Assembly: GCA_965223705.1 (NCBI GenBank)
Contig: OZ245015.1
Coordinates: forward strand, 3,200,001 to 3,264,000
DNA length: 64,000 nt
DNA from: Myxococcota bacterium
GTDB taxonomy: Bacteria > Myxococcota_A > UBA9160 > UBA6930
Direction of reading: 5' to 3'
This document shows positions 790 to 15,369 of the stretch, piece by piece. The stretch's first letter is position 1. The number at the start of each line of letters is the position of its first letter. The notes beneath the pieces are model-generated. The model was not told where the DNA came from, did no database searches, and saw nothing but the letters and a program-made list of their open reading frames with translations. The position numbers and the translations under genes are program-made.

Positions 790-2031
790 CTACTTGTCCT
801 TCCCGCCTGCGACGGCGCCCTGAAAGTTCTTCGGATCGAGATCGCCACTCGCAACGCGCTCTTGCAGGGTCGGCAACTGCGCGGGCAGCGGCTTGTTCGC
901 CTTCTTCTTGCAAAGACGCCCGAGGAGCTTCTTCGCGCGCTCGGGGACTTCAATCGTCTCGATCGCGCCCGACGCGAGCAGCGACTGCGTGGCCTTGTGG
1001 CCCGCCTCCGTGCGCACGACGACGTAGGTCCAATTGTCGAGACCGATGCCGCCGACGCCGATGTCCGCCTGATCGCACGCATAGTCGGTGCAGTAGAGGC
1101 AAGCGGGCCGGGCGTACCTCTGATAGTCCGAGAGGGACAGGATTTCCTCGCGGCCACCTTTGAAGCGCACGATCACCTTGCCCTTGATGTTGATGTTCTC
1201 GATGTCCGTCAGCGGAACTCCGTAGTCTTCCGCGATCGAGGTGACGGACTCGAGCGTAAACGCCTCGGAGCAGAACAACCCGACGACAAGGGAGATGTTC
1301 TTCCGATACCACTTGTTCACTTCGAGACGAATCGAACTGTGTTGCTGCTGGCGTACCCCATTCACCTGGCAGGGCACCCCGACGACGGCGATGGGCTTGA
1401 TGTCGTTCTCCATGGCTTCTTTCAGCGCCATGGTGTTGGGTGAGTACGTGTAGCGGGAGCCGGCGCAATCCATCACTTGCTCGGCGTTGCGCGCCAGACG
1501 CTGGTAACCGAGTTGCGGATTGTCCTCGTACGTGTCGCCGAGTACCGCGCCCTCGATTTTTCCCTCGTTCAGCAAGTGGATCAGCAATTCGCTGGTGAAA
1601 CCACCGTCCTGAGTGGCCTTGACCATTCCGTCCTGCTTGCTTCGAGCCAAGAACTCGTAGCTGTAGGGACCGAAACCGTCGTCTTGTTGGGGTTTCCGCA
1701 AACCGATGACGTCGTTCGCGTCCGGATCCGGAGGCCGCAGCGAAGGACAGACGTCCGCGCACAGCACACACCGGACGCACGCCCCTTCGCGCGTGTCGAC
1801 CGGGCGCTCGTCGACGTAATCGAAAACGTCTGTCGGGCAAATCGTCACGCAGGCCGCGCACCCTACGCACTTTCCTGTCTCGACGATCTCCTCCATCAGG
1901 AAATCGACGGCGCGGAAGCCACCGCGGTTGAGCTCGGACCGCCAGGCGTAAGCCCAGTCGCCCGGGTCCTCTCCGCTATCTACAAGTGAGCGATACCGGG
2001 CCTTGATCTCGTCAGGTCGATCGGAATCCAT
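790..2031 (-). CDS. Coenzyme F420 hydrogenase/dehydrogenase beta subunit (FrhB/FdhB/FpoF) family protein with N-terminal 2x[4Fe-4S]
   Basis: Ferredoxin motifs [12 protein letters not shown] and [12 protein letters not shown]. FrhB-family motifs QDGG, GSRY, VGVPCQ, GLFCSE, CLYCTDY and ADIGVGG. Confidence 0.88.
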
Positions 2032-2217: not shown

Positions 2218-3585
2218 GTGAGCGAAGCAGCATACGACCTATTCGTGATCGGTGCGGGATCGGGCGGAGTCCGAGCGAGTCGAATGTGCGCGGGCCTCGG
2301 CGCACGCGTCGCCGTCGCCGAGGAGCGCTACCTCGGGGGCACCTGCGTCAACGTCGGTTGTATCCCCAAGAAGCTCCTCGTCTATGCCTCCCACTTCCGA
2401 GAAGAGCGCGAACAGGCCATCCGGGGCTACGGGTGGAGTGTCGGCGAGGCGACAGCGGACTGGGCCACGCTCATCGCGAACAAAGACCGCGAGATCGCGC
2501 GCCTCAACGGAATCTATGGGGATCTCCTGGACGCCGCCGGCGTGACGCGGATCGAGGGCACGGCGCGGGTGCGGGGCCCACACGAGGTCGAGGTCGGCGA
2601 TCGGGTGATCCGGGCCGAACACATCCTCATCGCGAGCGGCGGCTGGCCCTCGGTCCCGGACATCCCGGGCATCGAGCACGCCATCACTTCCAATGAAGCC
2701 TTCCACCTCGAAAAGCTCCCCCGGCGCTCCGTGGTGGTCGGGGGCGGTTACATCGCCGTCGAGTTCGCCGGCATCCTCCACGGACTTGGCTCGGAGGTCA
2801 CCCAGCTCTACCGGGGCCCGCTGTTCCTGCGCGGCTTCGACGACGAAGTTCGTTCTCACCTCGCCGACGAGCTCCGAAAGCAGCGGCTCGATCTGCGGTT
2901 TGAGACCAACGTCGAGGCGATCCTGAAGCGCGAAGACGGTCTGCGCCTCGAGTTGACGGACGGCACGCACTTGGACACCGACGTGGTGCTCTTCGCTACC
3001 GGCCGGCATCCGAAGACGGCCGGGCTCGGCCTCGCGGAGGTCGGCGTCGAGACCGACGCGAGCGGTGCGATCCAGGTCGACGCGTACTCTCGGACGAACG
3101 TGCCCTCGATCTGGGCGATCGGGGACGTCACCAACCGCCTCAACCTGACGCCCGTCGCCATCCACGAGGGCATGTGCCTCGCGAAGACGTTGTTCGGCGG
3201 TGAGCCCACCGCGCCGGATCATCGCGACGTCGCCACGGCCGTCTTCAGCCAGCCTCCGATCGGAACCGTGGGTCTGACGGAGCAAGAGGCGGCCGCGCGG
3301 TTCCCGCGGCTCGACGTGTACACCTCGACGTTCCGGGCCCTAAAAGACACGCTGACGGGGAGCGACGCGAAGAGTCTCATGAAGCTGTTGGTCGATCCGG
3401 AAAGCGACCGGGTGGTCGGGCTTCACGTGGTCGGACCCGACGCGGGGGAAATGGTCCAAGGCTTTGCCGTCGCCGTGAAGTGTGGCGCCACAAAGGCGCA
3501 GTTCGACGCGACGATCGGAATTCATCCCACCGCTGCGGAAGAGCTCGTCACCATGCGCGAGCCCAGCCGACGCATCGGCGGGTAG
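2218..3585 (+). CDS. gor: Glutathione-disulfide reductase
   Basis: FAD motif GAGSGG, redox disulfide [24 protein letters not shown], and C-terminal [13 protein letters not shown] start at 2218 follows a GGAGG RBS. Confidence 0.93.
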
Positions 3586-3608: not shown

Positions 3609-4136
3609 ATGCGATTCCTTCGAACACTCGTCGCGTTGTTCGCCGCCGGGGCGGCCCAAGCCGCGGAAGTGCCCGAAGTCGGCACTAAAGCTCCCGCTTT
3701 CTCGCTGATGGGCTCGGACGGAAAGACCTATCGCCTGGCCGACTACGTGGGTCAGCGAGAAATCGTGCTCGCCTGGTTCCCGAAAGCGTTCACCCCTGGC
3801 TGAACCCGAGAGCTCACGGCGCTGCGTGACAGTGCCGACGACCTCGCCGCCTACGAAGCCGTCGTGTTCATGGTGAGCCTCGACTCGGCGGAAAAGAACG
3901 CCGAGTTCGCGAAATCGCTCGAAGCGCGTCACGTCCTGCTCTCGGATCCCGAGAAGAAGGCCGCGAAGGCCTATGGGGTGCTCGCACTGGGGGGCCTGTA
4001 CGCAAAGCGCTGGACGTACTACATCGATCGGGACGGCGTGGTTCAGGCGGTCGACAAAGACGTTTCGGTCGAGACCGCAGGGCAAGACATCGCCGCGAAA
4101 CTCGAGTCGCTGGGTTTTCAAAAACGGGAGAACTAA
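3609..4136 (+). CDS. Peroxiredoxin (BCP/PrxQ-like) with signal peptide; probable selenoprotein, Sec65 at TGA 3801-3803
   Basis: Track ORFs 3480-3803 and 3864-4136 share a frame. Read-through gives WFPKAFTPG-TGA-TRELTALRD, with TGA at the peroxidatic Cys of PxxxTxxC. The second half has Prx motifs LLSD, AYGV and RWTYYIDRDG. Confidence 0.9.
3814..3829 (+). promoter_or_regulatory. Candidate bacterial SECIS hairpin
   Basis: TCACG-GCGCTG-CGTGA: a 5-bp stem whose loop starts with G 16 nt after the TGA. Short and weak. Confidence 0.4.
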
Positions 4137-4762
4137 CCCCGTCCGATCAGCTGTTCCATTCGATGGGCATCGAATCCGCGCACCACTTCGCCGTCGATGA
4201 CGACGACGGGCACCGAAGTCCCGCCGCTGTGGCTGACGAGTTCTTTGCGATAGGCCTCGCTCGCCTCCACGTCCCGGTTCTCGTAGGCGATGCCCCGCTC
4301 ATCGAGCCACTCCACCGTCTTGCGGCACCAGCCGCACCACGGGGTCGTGTACACCGTAACGCTCGCACGAGCCGGTGCCGCAGCCGTCGCCGCAAAGGGG
4401 CGTGCCTTGGCCGCGGTCCGCGCCGCTTTGGGTCGAGGCGGTGCTTTCTCGACCTCGAGCCGGCCCACCTGATCGCGAAACTTCGCCGGCACCTCGTGCA
4501 TCGACTTCACGAAATGGACGCTTCCTCGGTCGTCCGTATATTGGAAGTACTCGGTTTTCCCAGGGCTCGATGTTGCCGAGGCGCTCTCGCCACCTTGAGA
4601 AGTGTCGTCTAGGACGCGCCCTGCGAACCCCTTGATCGCGTCGAGGGCGCCCTCGCCTTCGCCGGATGACGATTCGAGATTGAGAACGTTGCATGCGCTG
4701 AGCGCGAACGCGCAGGCACCGATTGCGATCGCACGGGTTAGACGAAAAGTGGCGAGCTGCAT
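4133..4762 (-). CDS. Glutaredoxin-domain lipoprotein (DUF4124-like N-terminal part plus Grx CGWC)
   Basis: Lipobox ALSAC. YQYTDDRGSVHF resembles DUF4124. YTTPWCGWC and SVPVVVIDG are glutaredoxin motifs. Confidence 0.8.
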   Translation of the reverse strand: MQLATFRLTRAIAIGACAFALSACNVLNLESSSGEGEGALDAIKGFAGRVLDDTSQGGESASATSSPGKTEYFQYTDDRGSVHFVKSMHEVPAKFRDQVGRLEVEKAPPRPKAARTAAKARPFAATAAAPARASVTVYTTPWCGWCRKTVEWLDERGIAYENRDVEASEAYRKELVSHSGGTSVPVVVIDGEVVRGFDAHRMEQLIGRG

Positions 4763-4996
4763 ACGGCACCTCCGAATCGGCCGGACATCCGCGGTATCGG
4801 CGATTTTGGCGGTGCGCTGGAGCGAGGGTGAAACGTCAACGCAGCGGGCGCGCAGGCGATCGGCAGCGCTAGTTCGTTTCGGCGCACCAGGCATCTGCGG
4901 TGGCGGAAAACGCGACGTCGTCGACCGATTCAGCGTGTCCCAAAACACCCCCGTCGCGCCATACGGCAGGTTACAATCTTCGCAGGAGGTTCCCCG

Positions 4997-5557
4997 GTGG
5001 CAAGACTCAGCACGCTCCCGCTCGACCAGCTCGGCGACGATCTGCGAAGTGTGATGCGAGAATACGACGTGGAGCTCGGCGGCTCGGGCTTCGTCCGGGT
5101 ACTCGCGCACGCTCCGGAGACGTTCCGGGCGTTTATCGATTATTACTTTCCGCTCGTGTCGGAAACTCGCGGCCGCGTCGACATGCGCCTCACGGAGCTC
5201 GCGCGGATCAAGGTGGCCGAACACAACGATTGCGATTTGTGACTGGGCGCCCGGTTTGCCTTGGCAAGGCAACAAGGTCTGACGGAAGCGATGATCGCCG
5301 AGCTACCCCGCTACCGAGACAGCGACGCGTTCACGCCCGCCGAAAAGGCGGCGATCGCACTGGCGGATACGCTCGCGGGCGATCACAAGGCCGCGTCCGA
5401 AGAGCTATTCGAGGAACTTCGAGAACACTACACCGAATCGGAAATCGTCGACCTCTCCTTCCGTATCACGGCGTTTATCGGCTACGGAAGAATGATTCGC
5501 GCCCTGGACCTCGAGATCGGCGAGACCTGTCCGATTCCGCCCGCTTCGAACGAATGA
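4997..5557 (+). CDS. AhpD/carboxymuconolactone decarboxylase family protein; probable selenoprotein, CxxU with Sec82 at TGA 5240-5242
   Basis: Track ORFs 4997-5242 and 5261-5557 share a frame, and the gap LGARFA is open. ELARIKVAEHNDCDL-TGA matches the AhpD CxxC motif. The downstream half (FTPAEKAAIALAD, LREHYTESEIVDL) is typical of the CMD family. AGGAGG RBS. Confidence 0.9.
5256..5272 (+). promoter_or_regulatory. Candidate bacterial SECIS hairpin
   Basis: Perfect 7-bp stem TTGCCTT-GGC-AAGGCAA, with the loop G 21 nt after the TGA. Confidence 0.6.
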
Positions 5558-5567
5558 GGAGATCATC

Positions 5568-6854
5568 GTGACCGCTTCTTTTGACCGCCTGGAAATCCAC
5601 AGTCCACAACGTTTGCTCGAATCGGGCTATCCGTGGCAGGACTTCGATCTCCTGCGCCGCGAAGCGCCCGTGTACTGGTACGAACACCCGGACGTCGAGC
5701 CGTTCTGGGCGATCACGAAGCACGAGGACGTGCAAACGATCTCCCGTCGTTCGGACATCTTCATCAATGGCGGTCCGAGGTTGCGGCTCACGCTGAAGGG
5801 ACAGACAGAGCCACTGCGCGGCGGGATCGATGAGTTCGGAAAGAAGCGCGGTTGGGATCCGGACGAGCCGCCGGACTTCGTGTTCATGGACGATCCGCGC
5901 CACAAGAAGTTCCGTTCCCTCGCGAGCCGCTCGTTTACCCCAGGCCGCCTGCGGTGTTCAGCGGAGCACTTCGCCAGCTTGGCCGAGGCGTTCACGGCGC
6001 GGTTCGCTGACCGGCTCAGCGCGGGCCCGTGTGATTTCGTCCCCGAACTCGCCACGAAGCTTCCGGTCGCCGCCATCTGCGAGATGATGGAGATGCCGGA
6101 AGACGTGTGGGAGAAACTGCTGGTCTGGACGAACGCCATCGTCGGCGACGTCGAGGAAATCGCGTTGCCCGGAGAGAGCAAAGAAGAAACGATGGCTCGC
6201 GCGATGAACGAGTTTCGCGCGTTCCTCGAGGGGTTCATTGCCGAGCGCAAAGCCAAGGACTCCCATCGGCCGGATTCTCTCGTCGACAACATCGTCGGTG
6301 GAAAGGTCGACGGAAAGGGACTCACCGATCAGCAGCTGATCGGCTACCTCCTACTCATAATCGGCGCCGGCAACGAAACGACTCGCAACGCCACGAGCGG
6401 TGGCGTCATCGCGCTCCTCGAGAATCCGGAACAGCGCGACCGCTTCTGCGCAGATCCTTCGCTCCTCGACACGACCATCGAAGAAATCCTCCGCTGGACG
6501 TCGCCGGTCTATCAGTTTCTGCGGACCGCCACCGAAGATTACGAACTCCGGGGTCAGAAAATCCGGGCGGGAGACACGGTGTGTGTCTTCTACGGTTCGG
6601 CGAACCGCGACGAAGACGTTTTCGACGACCCGTACCGCTTTGACGTCGGTCGCAGCCCCAACCCCCACCTCGCCTTCGGCGGCTACGGAGCACATTTCTG
6701 CCTCGGGGCGAACCTGGCGCGGGCGGAACTGCGTGCGGCGTTGACGGCACTGCGCCCGATCCTGCCGAAGATGGAGCTCGCCGGGCGACCGATACGCAAC
6801 CCGGACCTTCATGTGCCGGGCTACGTCTCGGTGCCGGTCCGCGCGGCCGCCTAG
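5568..6854 (+). CDS. Cytochrome P450
   Basis: I-helix AGNETT, ExxR motif EEILRW and haem-thiolate motif [20 protein letters not shown]. Confidence 0.95.
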
Positions 6855-8533
6855 AACAAACCCTCGATCTGTCCTTTGGCGTCGAGCCCGATGTGGTTCG
6901 CGGCCGGCTCTCGGGGGAGACCGGGCATCGTCATGATGTCGCCGCAAATCGCGACGATGAACTCGGCGCCAGCCGCCAAGCGGACTTCGCGGACCGGAAC
7001 GGCGTGATGGCTGGGCGCACCGAGCAGTTTGGGATCCGTTGAGAAGCTGTACTGCGTTTTCGCCATGCACACCGGGAAGTGGCCGAAGCCGTCTCGCTCG
7101 AGCCGGCGCAGCTCGTCGCGCACCTTCTTGTCCCCGATCGCTTCGTCCGCTCCGTAGACGCGCGTCGCAACGGTGTTGATCTTTTCCCAGAGCGGGAGCT
7201 CATCGTCGTAAAGCGGGGCGAACTGACTCCCGGACCGCTCGGTCAACGCGACGACTTCGCGCGCGAGCTCCTCGGCGCCGGCCCCGCCGTCGGCCCAGTG
7301 CGTGCAGGGCACCGCCCGAGCACCGGCTTCGGCGACGGCGTCCTCGAGGACGCGCCGCTCTTCCTCGGTATCTCCTGAGAACCCATTCACCGCGACCAGG
7401 ACGGGGACCCCGAACGACTTCACGTTGCGGATGTGACGAACGAGGTTCGCGGTGCCCTTGCGCACCGCTTCGGCGTCGGGTCGCGTCAGCTCCCCGAGTG
7501 CTATGCCGCCATGCATTTTCAGGGCGCGGATCGTCGCAACGATTACCGCGAGTTCCGGTTTCAGTCCTGCCTTCCGGCACTTGATATTGAAAAACTTCTC
7601 CGCACCGAGGTCCGCGCCGAACCCGGCCTCGGTCACGACATAGTCAGCCAGCTTGAGCCCCGCCTTCGTCGCGATCACCGAGCTGCAACCGTGAGCGATA
7701 TTCGCGAAGGGACCGCCGTGGATGATGGCGGGATTTCCCTCGAGGGTCTGGACGAGGTTCGGCATGAGCGCATCGCGCAGCAGGGTGGTCATCGCCCCCG
7801 CGGCTTCCAGCTGCTCCGCCGTGACGGGCTCGCGTTTGCGGGTTCTTGCGACGACGATATTGCCGAGTCGTCGGCGGAGATCTGCGAGGTTCTCGGCCAG
7901 ACACAGAATCGCCATCACTTCCGATGCGACGGTGATGTCGAAACCATCTTCCCGGGGATAACCGTTGCCAAGCCCGCCGAGCGCGACGTTCACCTGGCGT
8001 AGCGCGCGGTCGTTCATGTCGAGCACGCGCCGCCACGAAACGCGTCGCAAGTCGATCCCTTGAGCGTTGCCCCAATTGATGTGATTGTCGATCAACGCGG
8101 CCAACAGGTTGTGCGCCGCCGTAATCGCGTGGAGGTCTCCGGTGAAGTGGAGATTGATGTCCTCCATGGGGACGACCTGGGCGTAGCCCCCTCCCGCCGC
8201 ACCGCCTTTCATGCCGAAACACGGACCGAGGCTCGGCTCCCGCAGCGCCGTGAGCGCGCGCGCGCCGATTCGGTTCAGGCCGTCGCACAGCCCGACGGAG
8301 GTCGTCGTCTTACCCTCGCCGGCCGGCGTCGGTGTCATTCCTGTGACGAGAATGAGCTTCCCGTCGGGTCGGCCTTCCTGCTCCTCGAGAAAGTCGAAGC
8401 CGATCTTGGCCTTCGTGTGTCCGTAGGGAATGAGCGCTTCAACGGGAATTCCCAACCCGTCGCCGATCTCCTGGATGGGCCGCAGCGTGGCATCGCGCGC
8501 GATCTCGATGTCCGGCGGAACTTGGTCCGGCAC
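6851..8533 (-). CDS. fhs: Formate--tetrahydrofolate ligase
   Basis: Motifs [49 protein letters not shown] and MTMPGLP. Confidence 0.97.
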
Positions 8534-8732
8534 AGAGCCTCCTCAACTTGCCCCCCGGATACGATAGCTCCGCGGTGATCCGAAGAACGGGCTCTCCTGA
8601 CGCGATGTCCCGGCGATCACTGCACAGACGGCGGGCAGGTACTGATCGCTCTTTAGGCGAGCTCACCTGTGAGCGTGCGAGACTGCGCGCACGAGCTTGG
8701 CTCGTTTCTTGCTGCTTGGAATCACCGGGCGC

Positions 8733-8814
8733 GGCGCCCGTGGATTCCGAATGCGTGAGCGGCCTCACTCCCCTCCCCTCGAGCGTGGTTCGCCCCTGGA
8801 TTTCCACGGGCGCC
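8733..8814. repeat. 12-bp perfect inverted repeat in the 300-bp intergenic region upstream of fhs
   Basis: GGCGCCCGTGGA (8733-8744) pairs with TCCACGGGCGCC (8803-8814). Confidence 0.6.
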
Positions 8815-8831
8815 ATCTCTTTGGGTAGGGG

Positions 8832-10544
8832 TTACGCGCTTCCGTGTCGCAGGAGCTTACCGGGCGTCGAGCCCGTGCAGTCGCCCTCTTGGAACGTCAC
8901 CTCTCCGTTGACCATGATCCAGCGGTAGCCCGTCGCCTTGCGGATTCTCCGCCACTCGTTCGCCGGAAAATCGTGCGCGACTTCCGGATCGGTCGCCTGG
9001 AGGCTTTCGAAGTCGTAAATCACGAGGTCGGCGGGTCGACCTTCCGCGATCGTCCCGCGATCGTTGAAGCCCGCCATCTCCGAAGGAAGACCCGACAACC
9101 GGTAGTGCGCTTCCTCGAGGCTCATCATGTCCCGGTCCCGCACGAAGTCGGAAATGAACTCCGTCGTGAAAGCGCCGAGGGTGACGAACTTCGTGTGCGC
9201 TCCGCCGTCGGACACGCCGGGCACGGTGTACTTCGATTCGAAGATCTCGCGGTTGAGGTCCGTATCCGTGTTGAAGGGGGGCGTGAAGATCGTGGTTTGC
9301 AGCTTCTCATCGACGACAAGGTCGAGGAAAGCGTCGATCGGGTGCCGACCCTGGGCCTCTCCGAGCTGCTGCAGGTTCATCCCTTCCCACTTCTTGTTCT
9401 CGGCCTTGACCGTCTCGAGAACGGTGAACTCGCGAATCGGACCACACGCGACGGGCATGCGGCCGTGATCGTAGTCGTGCCGCAGACCTTCGCGAAGCGC
9501 GGGATCCTGCATCTTCTGCATCCGCTCTTCGACCGTGCCGAGGGTGACTTCCCGCCAGTCATCCTGTCCGTCGAGCAGGTTGAAGTCTTCGAACGTGTAC
9601 GTCAGGTCGTTCGGCGCCGTGGCCGCCTGCAAGTAGATCTTTATGCCCTGCTTCTGACACTCCTCGGCCCAATCGAGCAAGCGCCGGCTCTGGTGCGGGT
9701 GATAGTTGTTTGCGGCGACGACGTTGAAGAGAATCGGACCTCCGGAGCGCTCACCGAGTTTCGCCAAGAACTTGAGATCCTCGCGGAAGTCGTCTTTCGC
9801 CTGGGTGATCTGGATGTGGCCTCCGCCGCGCTTCTTCAGCACGTCGGCGAAGGCAAAGCACGTCTCATCGCTCATGCAGTCGGTCACCATCGGCGAACCG
9901 TCGAAGTCGCGCTGGACGGACGTAAAGCCGTCTCCCAGACGCTGGACGGACCAACCGCACGCGCCAGCGTCGAGGCCCGCCTCGAGAAGGCGACACATCT
10001 CCGCGAGCTCCTCGGCCGTGGGCTCGCGCTTCTTCGCGTCTTCGAGACCCATCACCCAGATCATCAGCGGGCCGACCGGAACGTACGAAATGACGTTCAC
10101 ACCCTTGGGCATACGTTCGAGAGAATCGAGCCATTCGGGGAAGGTCACCCAATCCCAGAGCATGCCCGCCTTCATCGAGTCGAAGGGGATCGCCTCGACA
10201 CGCGACATGCTGAGCATGGCGCGGTCGCGATTCTCAGGCGTAACCGGAGCGAAGCCAAAGCCGCAATTGCCGAGCACGAGCGACGTCACGCCGTGCCAAC
10301 CGGAGAGCGTGCAGTAGGGATCCCACTGGATCTGCGCGTCGTAGTGCGTGTGCAGGTCGACGAAGCCCGGCGCGACGACGAGGCCTTCCGCGTCGAGTAC
10401 GCGATCTGCATCGGCCGGGTCGAGGGACGACCGGGAAATCGCCGCGACCTTTCCGTCTCGGATCGCCAGGTCTCCGCGGAAGCGCGGGGCGCGGGTCCCG
10501 TCCACGATGGTGCCGTTCTGAATGATGGTGTCGTACTGGGCCAT
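8832..10544 (-). CDS. N-acyl-D-amino-acid deacylase family amidohydrolase
   Basis: Motifs PGFVDLHTHYDAQ, HGVTSLVLGNCG, SDGGAH and DRGTIAEGRPADLV. Confidence 0.9.
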   Translation of the reverse strand: MAQYDTIIQNGTIVDGTRAPRFRGDLAIRDGKVAAISRSSLDPADADRVLDAEGLVVAPGFVDLHTHYDAQIQWDPYCTLSGWHGVTSLVLGNCGFGFAPVTPENRDRAMLSMSRVEAIPFDSMKAGMLWDWVTFPEWLDSLERMPKGVNVISYVPVGPLMIWVMGLEDAKKREPTAEELAEMCRLLEAGLDAGACGWSVQRLGDGFTSVQRDFDGSPMVTDCMSDETCFAFADVLKKRGGGHIQITQAKDDFREDLKFLAKLGERSGGPILFNVVAANNYHPHQSRRLLDWAEECQKQGIKIYLQAATAPNDLTYTFEDFNLLDGQDDWREVTLGTVEERMQKMQDPALREGLRHDYDHGRMPVACGPIREFTVLETVKAENKKWEGMNLQQLGEAQGRHPIDAFLDLVVDEKLQTTIFTPPFNTDTDLNREIFESKYTVPGVSDGGAHTKFVTLGAFTTEFISDFVRDRDMMSLEEAHYRLSGLPSEMAGFNDRGTIAEGRPADLVIYDFESLQATDPEVAHDFPANEWRRIRKATGYRWIMVNGEVTFQEGDCTGSTPGKLLRHGSA

Positions 10545-10664
10545 GGGGTCTCCTGAGGATCCGCCGGCGGCAGGCGCACGGGCGGGAGGTTGGAGTCATC
10601 GTAGTCCTCGGCCTATGATCCGTAAACACTGTCAATGCGATCGTTACGATCGGTTTTTCGATTA

Positions 10665-11603
10665 ATGGAGACCCCCGTGGATCACCGCGAAGAACTCGAG
10701 GCCCTCGTCGAAACCGCGCGGATCGGAAACATGCGGCGAGCCGCCGAACGCCTCGGCCTCTCCCAGTCGACGTTGTCGGAGGCGATCACCCGCCTCGAGG
10801 GTTCCTACGGAGCGCGCCTCTTCTCGCGCGATCGTCGCGGTACACGCCCGACGGCGTACGGCGAGGTGGTCGTAGAAGCCGCCGAGCGCGCCCTGCGGAT
10901 GCTCGTGGCCGCTCGGAGGGAGGTGGGCCTGATCAAAGGCGCCGAATCCGGGCGCCTCGCGGTGGGCGGAGAGCCCGCGCTGATCGGCGCGTATTTGGCC
11001 GACGCGATTGCGCGCAGCTTGAACCGCTTCCCGAAATTGCGCTTCCGCCTGCACCCGGCCGACGCGGCGGGGGCTATCGAGGAATTGAGGGAACGACAGG
11101 TCGATATCGTCTTCGGACTGCGCCCGGACGGCCCGACGGAGGGAATGACGCTACGAGAGGTCGGTACGGCGCACGTCGTTCCTTTCGCGCGCGCCGGTCA
11201 TGCGCTGTCCGCTGCGGGGCGACGAGACCTCCGTGAGGTCTTCGAGTTTCCCATCGCCCAGGGAGCGGCACCTCGTTGGTATCTCAATCGTTTGGCGGAA
11301 ACGCTCGGCGGAGCCGACACGCGCAAGCGGCTGCCGAACGCAGCGGTCATCGTCAGCGATTTCTGGGCCGTGCGCGCGATCGTACGCCGGAGTGACGCCG
11401 TCGGGTTCTTTCCGCTGGCGACGCTGCAGGAGGATCTCGATCGCGCCGAGCTCGTTCGGATCGAGCTCAAGCCCGAACAGGAGAGGCTCCTCCGCGTCCC
11501 ACTGATCATCGCGACCCTGGAGGACCGCGCCCTGCCCCCTCTCGCCGCTCACCTGATCGGCGAGCTCGAGCGCGTCATCACGAGCCTCTCACCAGACCGG
11601 TAG
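10665..11603 (+). CDS. LysR-family transcriptional regulator
   Basis: HTH motif RRAAERLGLSQSTLSEAITRLEGSYGARLFSR..PTAYG. Divergent from the deacylase. Start could be 10635, 10665 or 10677. Confidence 0.9.
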   Translation: METPVDHREELEALVETARIGNMRRAAERLGLSQSTLSEAITRLEGSYGARLFSRDRRGTRPTAYGEVVVEAAERALRMLVAARREVGLIKGAESGRLAVGGEPALIGAYLADAIARSLNRFPKLRFRLHPADAAGAIEELRERQVDIVFGLRPDGPTEGMTLREVGTAHVVPFARAGHALSAAGRRDLREVFEFPIAQGAAPRWYLNRLAETLGGADTRKRLPNAAVIVSDFWAVRAIVRRSDAVGFFPLATLQEDLDRAELVRIELKPEQERLLRVPLIIATLEDRALPPLAAHLIGELERVITSLSPDR

Positions 11604-11629
11604 GGCACACGCGCAAGGGCGGTGGTGGC

Positions 11630-12727
11630 TCAGAAGGCGCCCGGGCGGCCGCGGCGCCTCAGTTTCCAGACGAAGCGCGAGGCGCCGAGATCGAGGCGAT
11701 CGGAAACGTCGATTCGGAAGTCGCGGTCGTGGACGGCGAGGACACCTTCGAGAACACCGCGCCAACCCTCGAACCACTCCGGCTGACATTCTCCTTCGAG
11801 CCCGCGAAACAACCGCCAGTTCATCTGTTCGATGCGCGCTTCGTCGTCATTCGTCTCGAGCGTGACCTCATCGCCGTGGGCTGCCAGCAAGGTCGCCAAG
11901 AGTGCGGGCGGCGATCGCTCCTCCGAAAGCTCCGCGACACGTTGCGCGTACTGCATTCCGATCCGCCGTCCGACGCGATAGAGCACCGTGCGACATTCGA
12001 GGGGCCCGAGCCGCTCGGCGAGGACCGGGACGATATTCCGGATGTAGTCCATCGCGTAGTTCCGCTCGACCTTGGCCAAACGCTCCGGCGGCCAGGCCGA
12101 CGCCGGCAGTTCCGGCAACGCCTCCGCTCGGATCGGGGGACACATCTCCCCAAAACGAAAGCGAACGCGCTCCTCGGGAGCGAGCGGGCGGTCTTCCTCG
12201 ATGTAGTAGCCCTCGAGTCCCGGTGCACCGTCCATCGTTTGACCTGTGCACACGAAGCCGAGCTTCGGGTTTCCGAGAGAGACTCCGTTGTGGCCGTGCC
12301 AAGCAAAAAGCATCGCCCGAGCGACGTCCGTGGGAATCGCAGCCAGCGCCGTCCCATCGAAGATCCAGCGTGGGGGCAGATACCGGACCCAGGCTTTCCG
12401 GTCCGTCTCCCGGACGTAGGCGACTCGCACCCCGCCCAAGTGGTTCGACAGGTAGTGATATTTCGCGCATGCGACGGCCGGCGGATCGTCCGCGAGGCCG
12501 AGCTTTTCGAGCCCTGGCAGAAAGCGCTCAAGGTGTTGTCGGCGAAACAACCCGAACAGGACGTCGGCCGCCTGACTCGGCCCGCGATCGACGATGAGAT
12601 CCAGGATCAAACCGGTGAGATAGCGGTGGTAGAGCTCCGCTAACGCGGCGTAGGCGCGGCCATTCTCGGCGACCGGCGTCGCCCGGGGCTGTGTCGCCGC
12701 GCGGGTGTTACGCTCGGGGGGTGTCAC
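11630..12727 (-). CDS. Hypothetical protein of about 360 aa
   Basis: Long ORF with protein-like composition (ACAKYHYLSN, RYLPPRWIFDG, WHGHNGVSLGNPKLGFVCT) filling the gap between LysR and the GrdB-like gene. Start is uncertain. Confidence 0.7.
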   Translation of the reverse strand: MTPPERNTRAATQPRATPVAENGRAYAALAELYHRYLTGLILDLIVDRGPSQAADVLFGLFRRQHLERFLPGLEKLGLADDPPAVACAKYHYLSNHLGGVRVAYVRETDRKAWVRYLPPRWIFDGTALAAIPTDVARAMLFAWHGHNGVSLGNPKLGFVCTGQTMDGAPGLEGYYIEEDRPLAPEERVRFRFGEMCPPIRAEALPELPASAWPPERLAKVERNYAMDYIRNIVPVLAERLGPLECRTVLYRVGRRIGMQYAQRVAELSEERSPPALLATLLAAHGDEVTLETNDDEARIEQMNWRLFRGLEGECQPEWFEGWRGVLEGVLAVHDRDFRIDVSDRLDLGASRFVWKLRRRGRPGAF

Positions 12728-13593
12728 AGGAAGAGCACCGCGTCGATCCGCTGCGTTTCACGGGCCGCACGATCGGGCGACTGATTACGGAACGCATCGA
12801 AGCCGAGAAGCCGGTCACCGATTTCCCCTGGACGCCGATCGAAAGGCCCCTTTCCGAGGCCAGGGTCGCGCTGCTCTCGACGGCGGGCATCTCGATGCGG
12901 GGGGATCCGCCGTTCGACATGGAAGGCGAGCGCAAGCGGCCGACGTGGGGCGACCCGAGCTGGCGCGCGATTCGGGCGGACGCCACGCCTGCTGACGTCG
13001 AGATCCATCACCTGCATATCGACACAGGCTACGCGAAACGCGATCTGAATGTCGCCCTGCCGATCGATCGCCTGCGGGAGCTCGCGGCAGCTGGCGTGGT
13101 GGGCTCCTCTGCTTCGCGCCACTACGCGATCATGGGTTTCCAAGGCAACGACCCGATGCGCGTCGTACGCGAGAGCGCAGACGAGATCGCCGCCTCTTGC
13201 CGTGAAGAAGGCGTCGATCTGCTGGCACTGGCGCCGGTCTGACCCGACTGCTGCCGGTCGGTCGGACTGGTCGCGCGACGGATCGAGGAGCTGGGCACTG
13301 CGACGGTGTGCGTCAACTTGCTCTGGAGCTTCCAGAAAATCGTCGGCATGGCGCGCGTCGCGGCGGTCGAACACCCGTTCGGTCGTCCCTTTGGCGACGT
13401 CGGCGATGCGGAGACACAGCGGGCCGTGCTGCGCGCCGCGCTCGAATTCGCGGCGCGCTGCCGCGCGCCGGGCGAAGTTGCGCACCTGCCGTTTCGGTGG
13501 CACGAAGAACCGAAGCAGACGAAATGGCATCCCCCGGAGCCCGCACCGATCATCCAGCTCATGAAGGCGCAGCTCGCGAAGAAAACCCGCTGA
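12721..13593 (+). CDS. Glycine/sarcosine/betaine reductase selenoprotein B (GrdB/PrdB)-like protein; probable selenoprotein, UxxC with Sec174 at TGA 13240-13242
   Basis: Track ORFs 12691-13242 and 13306-13593 share a frame. Motifs PLSEARVALLSTAG, GDPSWRAI, DLNVALPIDRLREL, EGVDLLALAPV-TGA-PDCCRSVGLVARRIEELGTATV and PFGRPFG match the PrdB/GrdB pattern. Confidence 0.88.
13254..13270 (+). promoter_or_regulatory. Candidate bacterial SECIS hairpin
   Basis: CCGGTC-GGTCG-GACTGG: a 6-bp stem with one G-U pair, and a loop starting GG 18 nt after the TGA. Confidence 0.45.
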
Positions 13594-13632: not shown

Positions 13633-15369
13633 ATGCATGATCTCGTGATTCGTTCCGGACGCATTGTCGATGGCAGCGGCCAGACCTGTGAGACGGGAGA
13701 CATCGCGATCGACGGCGGTCGTATCCGACAAGTCGGGGGCCGCGCGGGCCCGGCCCGCCAAGAAATCGTCGCCGACGGAGCCCTGGTGACTCCGGGATTT
13801 GTCGACGTACACACCCACTACGACGGTCAAGCCACGTGGGATCCCCATCTGTCGCCTTCGGGATGGCACGGCATCACGACCGTCGTCATGGGCAATTGCG
13901 GCGTCGGCTTCGCCCCCGCGCATCCGGACAAACGCGACTGGCTCATTCAGTTGATGGAAGGCGTGGAAGACATTCCCGGCAGCGCGCTCGCGGAGGGCAT
14001 CCGCTGGGAGTGGGAAACCTTCCCCGAGTATCTCGATGCGATCGAGCGCTTTCCGCGCGCCGTTGACGTGGGCACCCAGGTTCCCCACGGAGCTGTCCGT
14101 GGCTACGTCATGGGCGAACGTGGCGCTGCAAACGAGGACCCCACCGACGAGGACATCGCGGCCATGGCTGCCATCGTCGAGGAAGGACTCCGCGCCGGCG
14201 CCTTGGGATTCACGTCTTCACGCACCATGCTGCACCGCGCGAAAGACGGCGAACCGGTTCCCGGGACGTTCGCCGGCCACGAGGAACTCATGGGATTGGG
14301 TCGCGCGTGCGGTCGCGCGGGCCACGGTGTCTTCGAACTCGCCGGCGATTTCGGCATCGGCGGTATGCGCGGCCGGTTTCATGACGACGTCGTGTGGATG
14401 CGCGATTTGTCCCGCGAAACGGGCCTGCCCGTGAGTTTCGTCGTTGCCCAGGCCAGCCATCAGCCCGACGAGTGGCGAGAGATCTTTCGTTGGCTGGAGG
14501 GCGCTGTCGCGGCGGGCGCGAATTTGCGCGCGCAGGTGGCGACACGGCCGGCGGGCATGCTGCTCAACTTCGGAAATCCGATGCATCCGTTCAAGAGCCA
14601 TCCGACGTATCGCGCCGTCGAGCACCTCCCCTTCGCAGATCGGATCGCCGCACTCTCGAAGCCCGAAGTTCGGGCGCGGCTCGTGGGGGAATCCGCCGAA
14701 GCAACGGGCAAGTTCGATGCCTTCTTCATCCGACACTTCGAAAACATGTACCCGCTCGGCGATCCTCCGGATTACGAGCCGACCGCGGACGCGAGCATCG
14801 CCGGGATCGCGACGCGGACAGGCCGCGAGCCTCAAGCGGTTCTACTCGACGCGATGCTCGCGAACGGTGGAACCGATTTCGTGTACTACCCGATCATCAA
14901 CTACGCGGAAGCGAGCTTTGAGCCGATCCGCGAGATGTTGTGCCATCCGCTGGCCCTGCTCAGTCTCTCCGATGGCGGAGCTCATTGCGGCGTGATCTGC
15001 GACGCGAGCTCGCCCTCCTACATGTTGAGCTATTGGGTACGCGATCGTTCGCGCGGTCCACGCTTGCCGCTCGAGTTCGCGGTGAAGCTTCAGACCCGGG
15101 ACACCGCCGTTGCGTACGGTCTCCACGATCGCGGTCTCCTCGCTCCGGGCATGCGAGCGGACGTCAATGTGATCGACCTCGACAACCTCCGCCTTCACGC
15201 ACCCGAGGCGGTACACGATCTCCCGGCGAGTGGGCGCCGGCTCGTACAGCGAGCCGACGGCTACCTCGCGACGGTGCAGTCGGGAGAGGTGACGTACCGA
15301 GACGGCGAAGCGACCGGGGCCCTGCCCGGTCGCCTCATCCGCGGCCCCCAGGCAGCGCCTACGCACTAA
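13633..15369 (+). CDS. N-acyl-D-amino-acid deacylase family amidohydrolase (second paralogue)
   Basis: Motifs [38 protein letters not shown] and [24 protein letters not shown]. Confidence 0.9.

Follow-up and report, generated by a model that had tools for sequence, protein, structure and literature searches.

Three unrelated genes lying within 10 kb of one another in the 64,000-nucleotide stretch of Myxococcota DNA analysed here (the window), encoding a peroxiredoxin (Prx), an AhpD-like protein and a PrdB/GrdB-like protein, are each interrupted by a single in-frame TGA. The questions raised by this locus are whether the genes are broken, recoded or selenoprotein genes, and whether their proximity has any meaning. 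A previous interpretation made from the letters alone (the sequence-only reading) proposed three hidden selenoprotein genes. It is very likely that the three TGAs, which fall at catalytic-Cys positions of intact and unrelated redox genes, are read as selenocysteine (Sec), that these genes are neighbours largely by chance among at least 33 thiol-oxidoreductase-type selenoprotein genes, and that the host is a probable O2-respiring, Myxococcota-like bacterium. The genes and codons concerned are as follows.

3609..4136, + strand: BCP/PrxQ-type peroxiredoxin, 175 aa, Sec65 in FPKAFTPGU, Pfam PF00578 at 104 bits
3801..3803, + strand: in-frame TGA, predicted Sec65, at the TGA/Cys column of homologues
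4997..5557, + strand: AhpD/CMD-fold protein, 186 aa, GTG start with AGGAGG upstream, Sec82 in NDCDLU
5240..5242, + strand: in-frame TGA, predicted Sec82, at the TGA/Cys column of homologues
12721..13593, + strand: stand-alone PrdB/GrdB-like selenoprotein, 290 aa, Sec174 in APVUPDCC
13240..13242, + strand: in-frame TGA, predicted Sec174, at the TGA/Cys column of homologues

Re-reading the frames bears out the positions and motifs first given (TxxU, CxxU and UxxC at 3801, 5240 and 13240), and each TGA is the sole internal stop of its frame. The continuation into family-typical sequence is also borne out, since the profiles of Pfam AhpC-TSA (residues 24-147), Pfam CMD (40-124) and TIGR04483 PrdB (24-255) each run across the TGA. 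A Markov gene caller trained on this genome cuts all three genes at the TGA, as had been expected of standard callers. Furthermore, all three families do have Sec-containing bacterial members, according to a 2026 review (PMC13188914) and two ocean surveys (PMC1088965, PMC2398784). The same review counts 119 selenoprotein families, including Prx with TxxU, AhpD-like and CMD-like proteins with CxxU, and D-proline reductase with UxxC.

The homologues bear on whether the interruptions are damage. The TGA column holds TGA or Cys at 49 of 50 homologous Prx loci (TGA 31, TGC/TGT 18, one uncovered), 14 of 15 AhpD loci (TGA 12, Cys 2, Ile 1) and 7 of 7 PrdB loci (TGA 5, TGC 2). The TGA form of Prx occurs in records titled Myxococcota, Pseudomonadota, Verrucomicrobiota, Acidobacteriota and Planctomycetota. 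Within the order of the host, a Prx orthologue is found in 18 of 41 genomes, with one TGA each in 19 of 19 matches, and a PrdB-like gene in 32 of 41, with TGA in 72 of its 74 matches; the close orthologue of the AhpD-like gene does not extend beyond the genus. Of the best 120 PrdB-like database proteins, 117 have their end immediately ahead of the TGA column, and the other 3 continue across it with Cys there. The 68 database matches of the AhpD-like protein comprise 50 that start after the column, 2 that end before it, 14 that span it with Cys and 2 that span it with Trp. Pseudogenization or misassembly, with a nonsense change in each of the three genes, has practically no chance of being the explanation, although single-genome assemblies do contain errors: the TGA recurs at the same column in dozens of genomes from several phyla, which refutes it in practice, the downstream halves are 60-80% identical with covarying hairpins, and the shared endpoint of the PrdB-like database proteins speaks against it too. 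The recurrence across phyla also upholds the view that three independent nonsense changes are implausible. In contigs assembled from 4 public runs, the TGA letters are unchanged at all three sites, with 9 differences elsewhere; sites 3801 and 5240 lie within long pieces in all 4 runs, and 13240 does so in 3 of the 4. TGC or TGT in place of TGA is therefore absent there, but this agreement is weak support because the runs belong to one study with no more than 2 samples, from which the window itself may derive.

The genome that holds the window (G000; 4.56 Mb, 2 contigs, 95.2% complete, 0.58% contamination) encodes the complete Sec machinery, so the absence of machinery that would have told against selenoproteins is not seen. 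The selA, selB and selD products score 486, 320.7 and 269.6 bits, all above cut-off, and tRNA-Sec scores 78.2 bits. SelD is an Ndh-SelD fusion with Cys, not Sec. Counting this genome, selA is found in 38 of the 41 genomes of the order, and the nearest named homologues carry the titles Myxococcota or delta proteobacterium, with one Spirochaetales. A different decoding, in which TGA is reassigned genome-wide to Trp, Gly or Cys, or in which the sites take Cys instead of Sec, is very unlikely. Trp stands at the column in 2 of the 16 AhpD database proteins that span it, most likely through another translation table, and Cys insertion via the Sec pathway is possible under selenium shortage. On the other side, TGA is the terminal stop of 1694 of 4190 gene calls made by the trained caller, release factor 2 (RF2) with its SPF motif and a tRNA-Trp(CCA) are encoded, and confirmed read-through sites land on redox Cys columns. 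The only confident call among tRNAs with a TCA anticodon is tRNA-Sec; one unassigned call (contig C1:4419161) has an 8-nt loop. Under the favoured decoding, UGA would be read as Sec by the SelB and tRNA-Sec of the genome, guided by a predicted selenocysteine insertion sequence (SECIS) hairpin 17-21 nt downstream; binding of the hairpin by SelB and insertion of Sec would presumably proceed in competition with RF2. The predicted hairpins are the following.

3817..3837, + strand: predicted SECIS hairpin of Prx, 8-bp stem, 5-nt loop with G at loop position 2, 21 nt after UGA
5256..5272, + strand: predicted SECIS hairpin of the AhpD-like gene, 7-bp stem, 3-nt loop GGC, 20 nt after UGA
13253..13271, + strand: predicted SECIS hairpin of the PrdB-like gene, 7-bp stem, loop GGTCG, 17 nt after UGA

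These hairpins were found by our own scan built on the published bacterial model rather than by bSECISearch. [quoted passage not shown] All three hairpins fit this geometry, although the AhpD stem alone, at -6.3 kcal/mol, is weaker than the model limit of -7.5. In Prx, the closing pair covaries (G-C in 18 sequences, C-G in 11). In the AhpD-like gene, every one of the 12 distinct TGA sequences keeps the 7 pairs intact, and 5 of these pairs show two-sided changes; the hairpin is in none of 3 non-TGA sequences. The PrdB hairpin test is passed by 19 of 21 distinct TGA sequences. In addition, the base U never directly follows UGA at the 33 Sec sites compared, as against 280 of 1658 terminal TGAs (P=0.004).

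Several observations weigh against this reading or soften its evidence. At a fixed position, 28 of 31 distinct TGA sequences have the Prx hairpin and none of 18 with TGC/TGT does, but that position was picked after the TGA sequences had been viewed and the kin are not independent; when the position is left free and an energy cut-off is applied, the contrast is weak (17/30 versus 5/18, P=0.07). Genome-wide, a hairpin follows 28 of 33 Sec sites, compared with 339 of 3000 Cys codons and with 144 of 1666 terminal TGAs; the first proportion is inflated because the hairpin was visible when some of the 33 sites were chosen. Folded as wholes, the 60-nt and 100-nt stretches downstream of the three TGAs have energies that do not surpass those of shuffled sequences (z -1.05 to +0.86). 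NCBIfam cut-offs are reached by none of the three proteins. The relay His is missing from the AhpD-like protein and likewise from its Cys homologues, and TGAs in the CMD family are scarce in relatives (3 among 51 matches from 14 genomes, versus 6 of 16 here, in a search that missed at least one known TGA gene). Finally, the genome holds trimethylamine N-oxide (TMAO)/dimethyl sulfoxide (DMSO)-reductase-like molybdoenzymes, and with these enzymes present the host may be facultative.

The predicted Prx carries the active-site motif P58-xxx-T62-xx-U65 and the catalytic R134, as aligned with the BCP structure PDB 3DRN. The read-through chain contains no Cys at all, and therefore the resolving cysteine of 2-Cys forms is missing; its N-terminus resembles, as judged by eye, a signal peptide. 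Since all NCBIfam scores lie below cut-off (PRK09437 77.2 of 140 bits, PrxQ 68.8 of 260, PrxU 48 of 270), the sequence is assignable at the level of the Prx superfamily only. With the Sec-Prx of the Sargasso Sea and Global Ocean Sampling (GOS) surveys (PF00578, COG1225, TxxU) and with BCP/PrxQ, it has in common PxxxTxxU, the catalytic Arg, the in-frame UGA and a downstream hairpin. It differs from the Sec relatives, many of which keep a Cys at +4, in having no cysteine, and from both groups in its signal-peptide-like N-terminus and its score below the PRK09437 cut-off. The protein is likely an exported one-Sec peroxidase whose selenol would reduce peroxides; because the chain has no cysteine, recycling would need an outside thiol or redoxin.

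In the AhpD-like protein, the CMD helical hairpin with CxxU and its upstream Glu are present (PF02627, 50.8 bits, cut-off 23). The residues E67, C79 and U82 of the motif C79-D-L-U82 correspond to Glu36, Cys48 and Cys51 of PA0269 in an alignment to PDB 2O4D and 2IJC. The AhpD proton relay consists of Glu, Cys, His/Tyr, Cys and His (PMC3141380), and this five-residue relay is incomplete here, with L81 and R86 replacing Tyr50 and His55 of PA0269. A link between the Arg and Sec was considered and rejected, for the 14 full-length Cys homologues have Arg there too; because they share it, the protein appears to belong to a subfamily with a non-standard site in which peroxidase activity is not assured. 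What it shares with AhpD-like and CMD-like CxxU selenoproteins (TIGR01926, PF02627; 'AhpD-like 1/2' of GOS), PA0269 and Mycobacterium tuberculosis AhpD is the CMD fold, a Glu 12 residues before CxxU, and Sec as the second Cys, whereas the two relay replacements and scores below every NCBIfam cut-off set it apart from PA0269 and AhpD. The protein likely works by cycling a selenenylsulfide between C79 and U82, whether to reduce disulfides or peroxides or to serve as an adaptor.

The PrdB-like gene needs a more careful assignment. Its motif U174-P-D-C-C (U174 when numbered from 12721, U168 when counted from 12739) places UxxC at the family column, and PF07355 matches at 33.1 bits (cut-off 22). 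The description of this gene as GrdB-like holds as far as a PrdB/GrdB family member with UxxC goes, but not as a glycine or proline reductase subunit. That it is a true D-proline or glycine reductase subunit, serving a Stickland-type fermentation in a partly anaerobic host, is quite unlikely. The best family match is indeed TIGR04483 PrdB (E 1e-40), UxxC is retained, and JGI labels many homologues 'D-proline reductase PrdB'; the TIGR04483 score is nevertheless 139.5 bits against a cut-off of 300, and TIGR01918 gives 45.6 against 65.45. Moreover, the pyruvoyl proprotein PrdA/GrdE (PF09338) is found in none of the 41 genomes of the order, including this one at its 95.2% completeness, by a search that does work because 1 of 301 genomes of the phylum gives a match. 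GrdA (PF04723) also gave no match, in a search whose control genomes gave none either. The genome further encodes five divergent PrdB-like paralogues with unrelated neighbours. One of these, on the - strand at G000:C1:150121 (locus L098), has UPLD in place of UxxC, so that the +3 cysteine is missing.

By sequence, the PrdB-like protein thus appears to resemble a PrdB-type selenol nucleophile while failing membership as a D-proline reductase subunit. An AlphaFold model (pLDDT 91.7, 14 sequences) puts Sec at the beginning of a helix after a beta-strand, and neither sequence search nor Foldseek (best E 0.019) returned a solved relative. The selenolate would likely act as the nucleophile for a reductive cleavage, with the Cys at +3 resolving, on a substrate other than PrdA-bound D-proline. 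In common with the marine 'proline reductase PrdB' UxxC selenoproteins (PF07355; 42 Sargasso and 235 GOS sequences) and with clostridial PrdB (TIGR04483), it has a stand-alone PrdB-sized chain and the UxxC column. The differences are the lack of PrdA/GrdE matches in this genome and 40 relatives, the UPDCC motif, the five paralogues and the want of a solved relative.

How selenoprotein-rich is the genome as a whole? All 47,113 TGAs with an upstream start were scored for coding signal on both sides, candidates were picked by paralogue alignments and hairpins, and 60 were scanned with profiles (60 Pfam, 40 NCBIfam). In 30 of the 60, representing 29 genes, a hidden Markov model spans the TGA at a redox motif. 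The 30 read-through candidates that failed are mostly ordinary adjacent genes in the same frame; a further 17 motif-plus-hairpin candidates and 9 of 10 double-TGA candidates were rejected by eye, with no profile test. Adding the three genes of the window and a single UxxU gene from a family search brings the total to 33 genes with 35 TGA codons, so the scan for further TGA/Cys pairs proposed with the sequence-only reading yields at least 33 predicted selenoprotein genes. The count may fall short by a few, because the scan caught 8 of 9 TGA-bearing PF00578 matches. The families are AhpD/CMD (9), Prx-like or TlpA-like (6), PrdB-like (5), Prx with TxxU (3), UGSC (3) and rhodanese (3), and SelW, ArsC-like, OsmC and MerB-like with a single gene each. 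The formate dehydrogenase alpha subunit (TIGR01591, 802 bits) contains no TGA, and likewise the other five molybdopterin proteins. The genome passes the selenoprotein-rich threshold of at least 6 genes (PMC5029168). The claim that the local density suggests a selenoprotein-rich genome is accordingly right about the genome, although the density itself does not mark a conserved cluster.

Oxygen use was the other part of that proposal. An aa3-type cytochrome c oxidase operon is present (PF00115 at 445 bits, above cut-off; TIGR02891 at 588, below its cut-off of 671), together with KatG, 14 P450-like genes and proteins with superoxide dismutase motifs, and 36 of 41 genomes of the order have oxidase subunit I. 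A molybdopterin subunit of the genome is presumably alternative-complex-III-like. A NiFe-hydrogenase motif, searched for with a crude regular expression, is in no called gene. The host therefore probably respires oxygen, and the statement that the oxygenase content points to an aerobe is supported by the oxidase operon, KatG and the P450-like genes; it rests on gene content and allows facultative life.

Turning to the proximity of the three genes, placing 33 genes randomly on the called genes brings three Sec genes within the observed 9,439 nt in 5.9% of trials (P=0.059), and four, the fourth being ArsC-like, within 22.8 kb in 1.6% (P=0.016), a calculation made after the fact. These figures lend some colour to the idea of a single functional selenoprotein island or pathway made up of the three genes, for example with AhpD recycling Prx, as does the same-genus genome G001, in which the AhpD and PrdB orthologues are 2.4 kb apart. 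Such an island is nevertheless improbable: unrelated genes of opposite orientation lie between the three, the Prx and PrdB orthologues are approximately 330 kb (G014) and 700 kb (G025) apart in single-contig relatives, Prx lies on a different contig in G001, the AhpD orthologue is restricted to the genus, and Prx looks exported while the AhpD-like protein does not. The window neighbours recur within 1.5 kb at none of the 8 Prx loci and none of the 15 AhpD loci; at the PrdB loci they do so in 3 of 24 (an amidohydrolase twice, a P450 once). The 10-kb grouping is mostly chance and not a conserved unit.

A smaller reductase-Prx-glutaredoxin unit was also considered and rejected, being absent at the 8 Prx homologue loci. 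Its two non-Sec members are these.

2284..3585, + strand: pyridine nucleotide-disulfide oxidoreductase, ending 23 nt before the Prx start, linkage absent at 8 of 8 loci; we take the product to be glutathione-reductase-like
4133..4742, - strand: lipoprotein-like glutaredoxin (CGWC), convergent with Prx, start not fixed, absent within 1.5 kb of 8 of 8 Prx loci

Viewed against what is known, the three genes are new members of known families and mostly ordinary; the finding draws its interest from the picture at genome level and from PrdB-like paralogues that lack an explanation, rather than from the grouping within 10 kb. In the Sargasso (2005, PMC1088965) and GOS (2008, PMC2398784) surveys the same families lead in abundance in oxic seawater and FdhA is scarce, and Sec-Prx numbers 43 and 253 genes, respectively; the family mix of the 33 genes matches this ocean selenoproteome. 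The 57,630 entries of BSepDB come from 16,621 species, a mean of about 3.5, and its top ten have 46-63 (PMC13326102). With 33 genes, the present genome has approximately nine times the mean and stands below the top ten, which is high but no record. The top ten (Olavius Delta 1, Desulfobacterota, UBA8248, Dehalococcoidia; PMC13326102) likewise have tens of selenoprotein genes per genome, whereas the 33 here are all thiol-oxidoreductase-like, beside Cys-type FdhA and SelD and an aa3-type oxidase. Aerobic bacteria seldom retain selenoproteins according to the 2026 review (PMC13188914), and 40.4% of Sec users are aerobic while 78.3% of the selenoprotein-rich ones are anaerobic (Peng 2016, PMC5029168). 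Our literature search on selenoproteins in Myxococcota found nothing related, and the available portion of a 2026 preprint on Myxococcota genomes has no mention of 'selen'; BSepDB may already list the lineage.

A broader proposal can be put forward tentatively, as one a little short of an even prospect. A Myxococcota-like order would be an unreported O2-respiring carrier of the ocean-type selenoproteome, with Sec almost wholly in thiol-oxidoreductase-like proteins and no Sec-FdhA or Sec-SelD in this genome, and the five PrdA-less PrdB-like paralogues would form a distinct, self-sufficient selenoenzyme class with undiscovered substrates, beside a cysteine-free exported Prx and a double-Sec MerB-like protein. 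If true, this would run counter to the view that aerobes rarely keep selenoproteins. The near-complete 2-contig genome ties families seen as loose seawater reads to one probable aerobe, and the five paralogues offer a compact test set for the function of the abundant marine 'PrdB' family. The minimum value is an annotation fix: standard callers split the three genes and about 30 others, and the PrdB-like homologues in the database are cut at the Sec codon in the proportion given above (117/120).

Some of the other selenoprotein genes deserve description. The MerB-like gene (PF03243, 60 bits; G000:C1:4501339-4502049, - strand, locus L185) has two in-frame TGAs, and U115 and U188 fall at two Cys columns of the solved relative MerB2 (PDB 5C17). 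Both TGAs are conserved at 29% identity in genomes G387 and G291, 3 of 151 genomes of the class giving a match. The residue three past the first Sec, Asp in G387 and G291, is Gly here. SaoL has Sec at the second position only, in contrast to both positions in the protein described here, and a protein-database search with the read-through MerB-like protein gave no match. The gene at G000:C1:4397671-4398180 (+ strand, locus L190) is Prx-like with TGAs three codons apart (UxxU) and was missed by the single-TGA scan. The UGSC genes, at 322673 (-), 1758604 (+) and 2906651 (+) of G000:C1, each adjoin a gene of 353-518 aa, and two 350-aa genes beside UGSC genes have a common D-G-L-P-V-x-x-P-T motif.

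Other genes of the window lie around the three subjects. A 365-aa gene at 11630-12727 (- strand) is divergent from the PrdB-like gene, has no Pfam match and shows no linkage in the 24 PrdB loci. The genes at 8832-10544 (- strand) and 13633-15369 (+ strand), which flank a LysR gene and the PrdB-like gene, are two of 13 paralogous amidohydrolase-3 genes; a similar amidohydrolase starts within 1.5 kb of a PrdB orthologue in 2 of 24 loci. At 790-2031 (- strand) this probable aerobe encodes a protein of the FrhB/FdhB family, F420 hydrogenase beta-like, that carries a 4Fe-4S dicluster domain. Elsewhere in the genome, near-identical stretches approximately 1.3 kb apart at G000:C1:2530088 and 2531423 (+ strand) precede frames of 371 and 372 aa, which suggests a tandem duplication. 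The 23S rRNA gene (L186:5155-9147; G000:C1 ~1193154-1197146) is 3993 nt long where the model has 2925 positions, and a match to a group I intron (RF00028, 61 bits) lies inside it.

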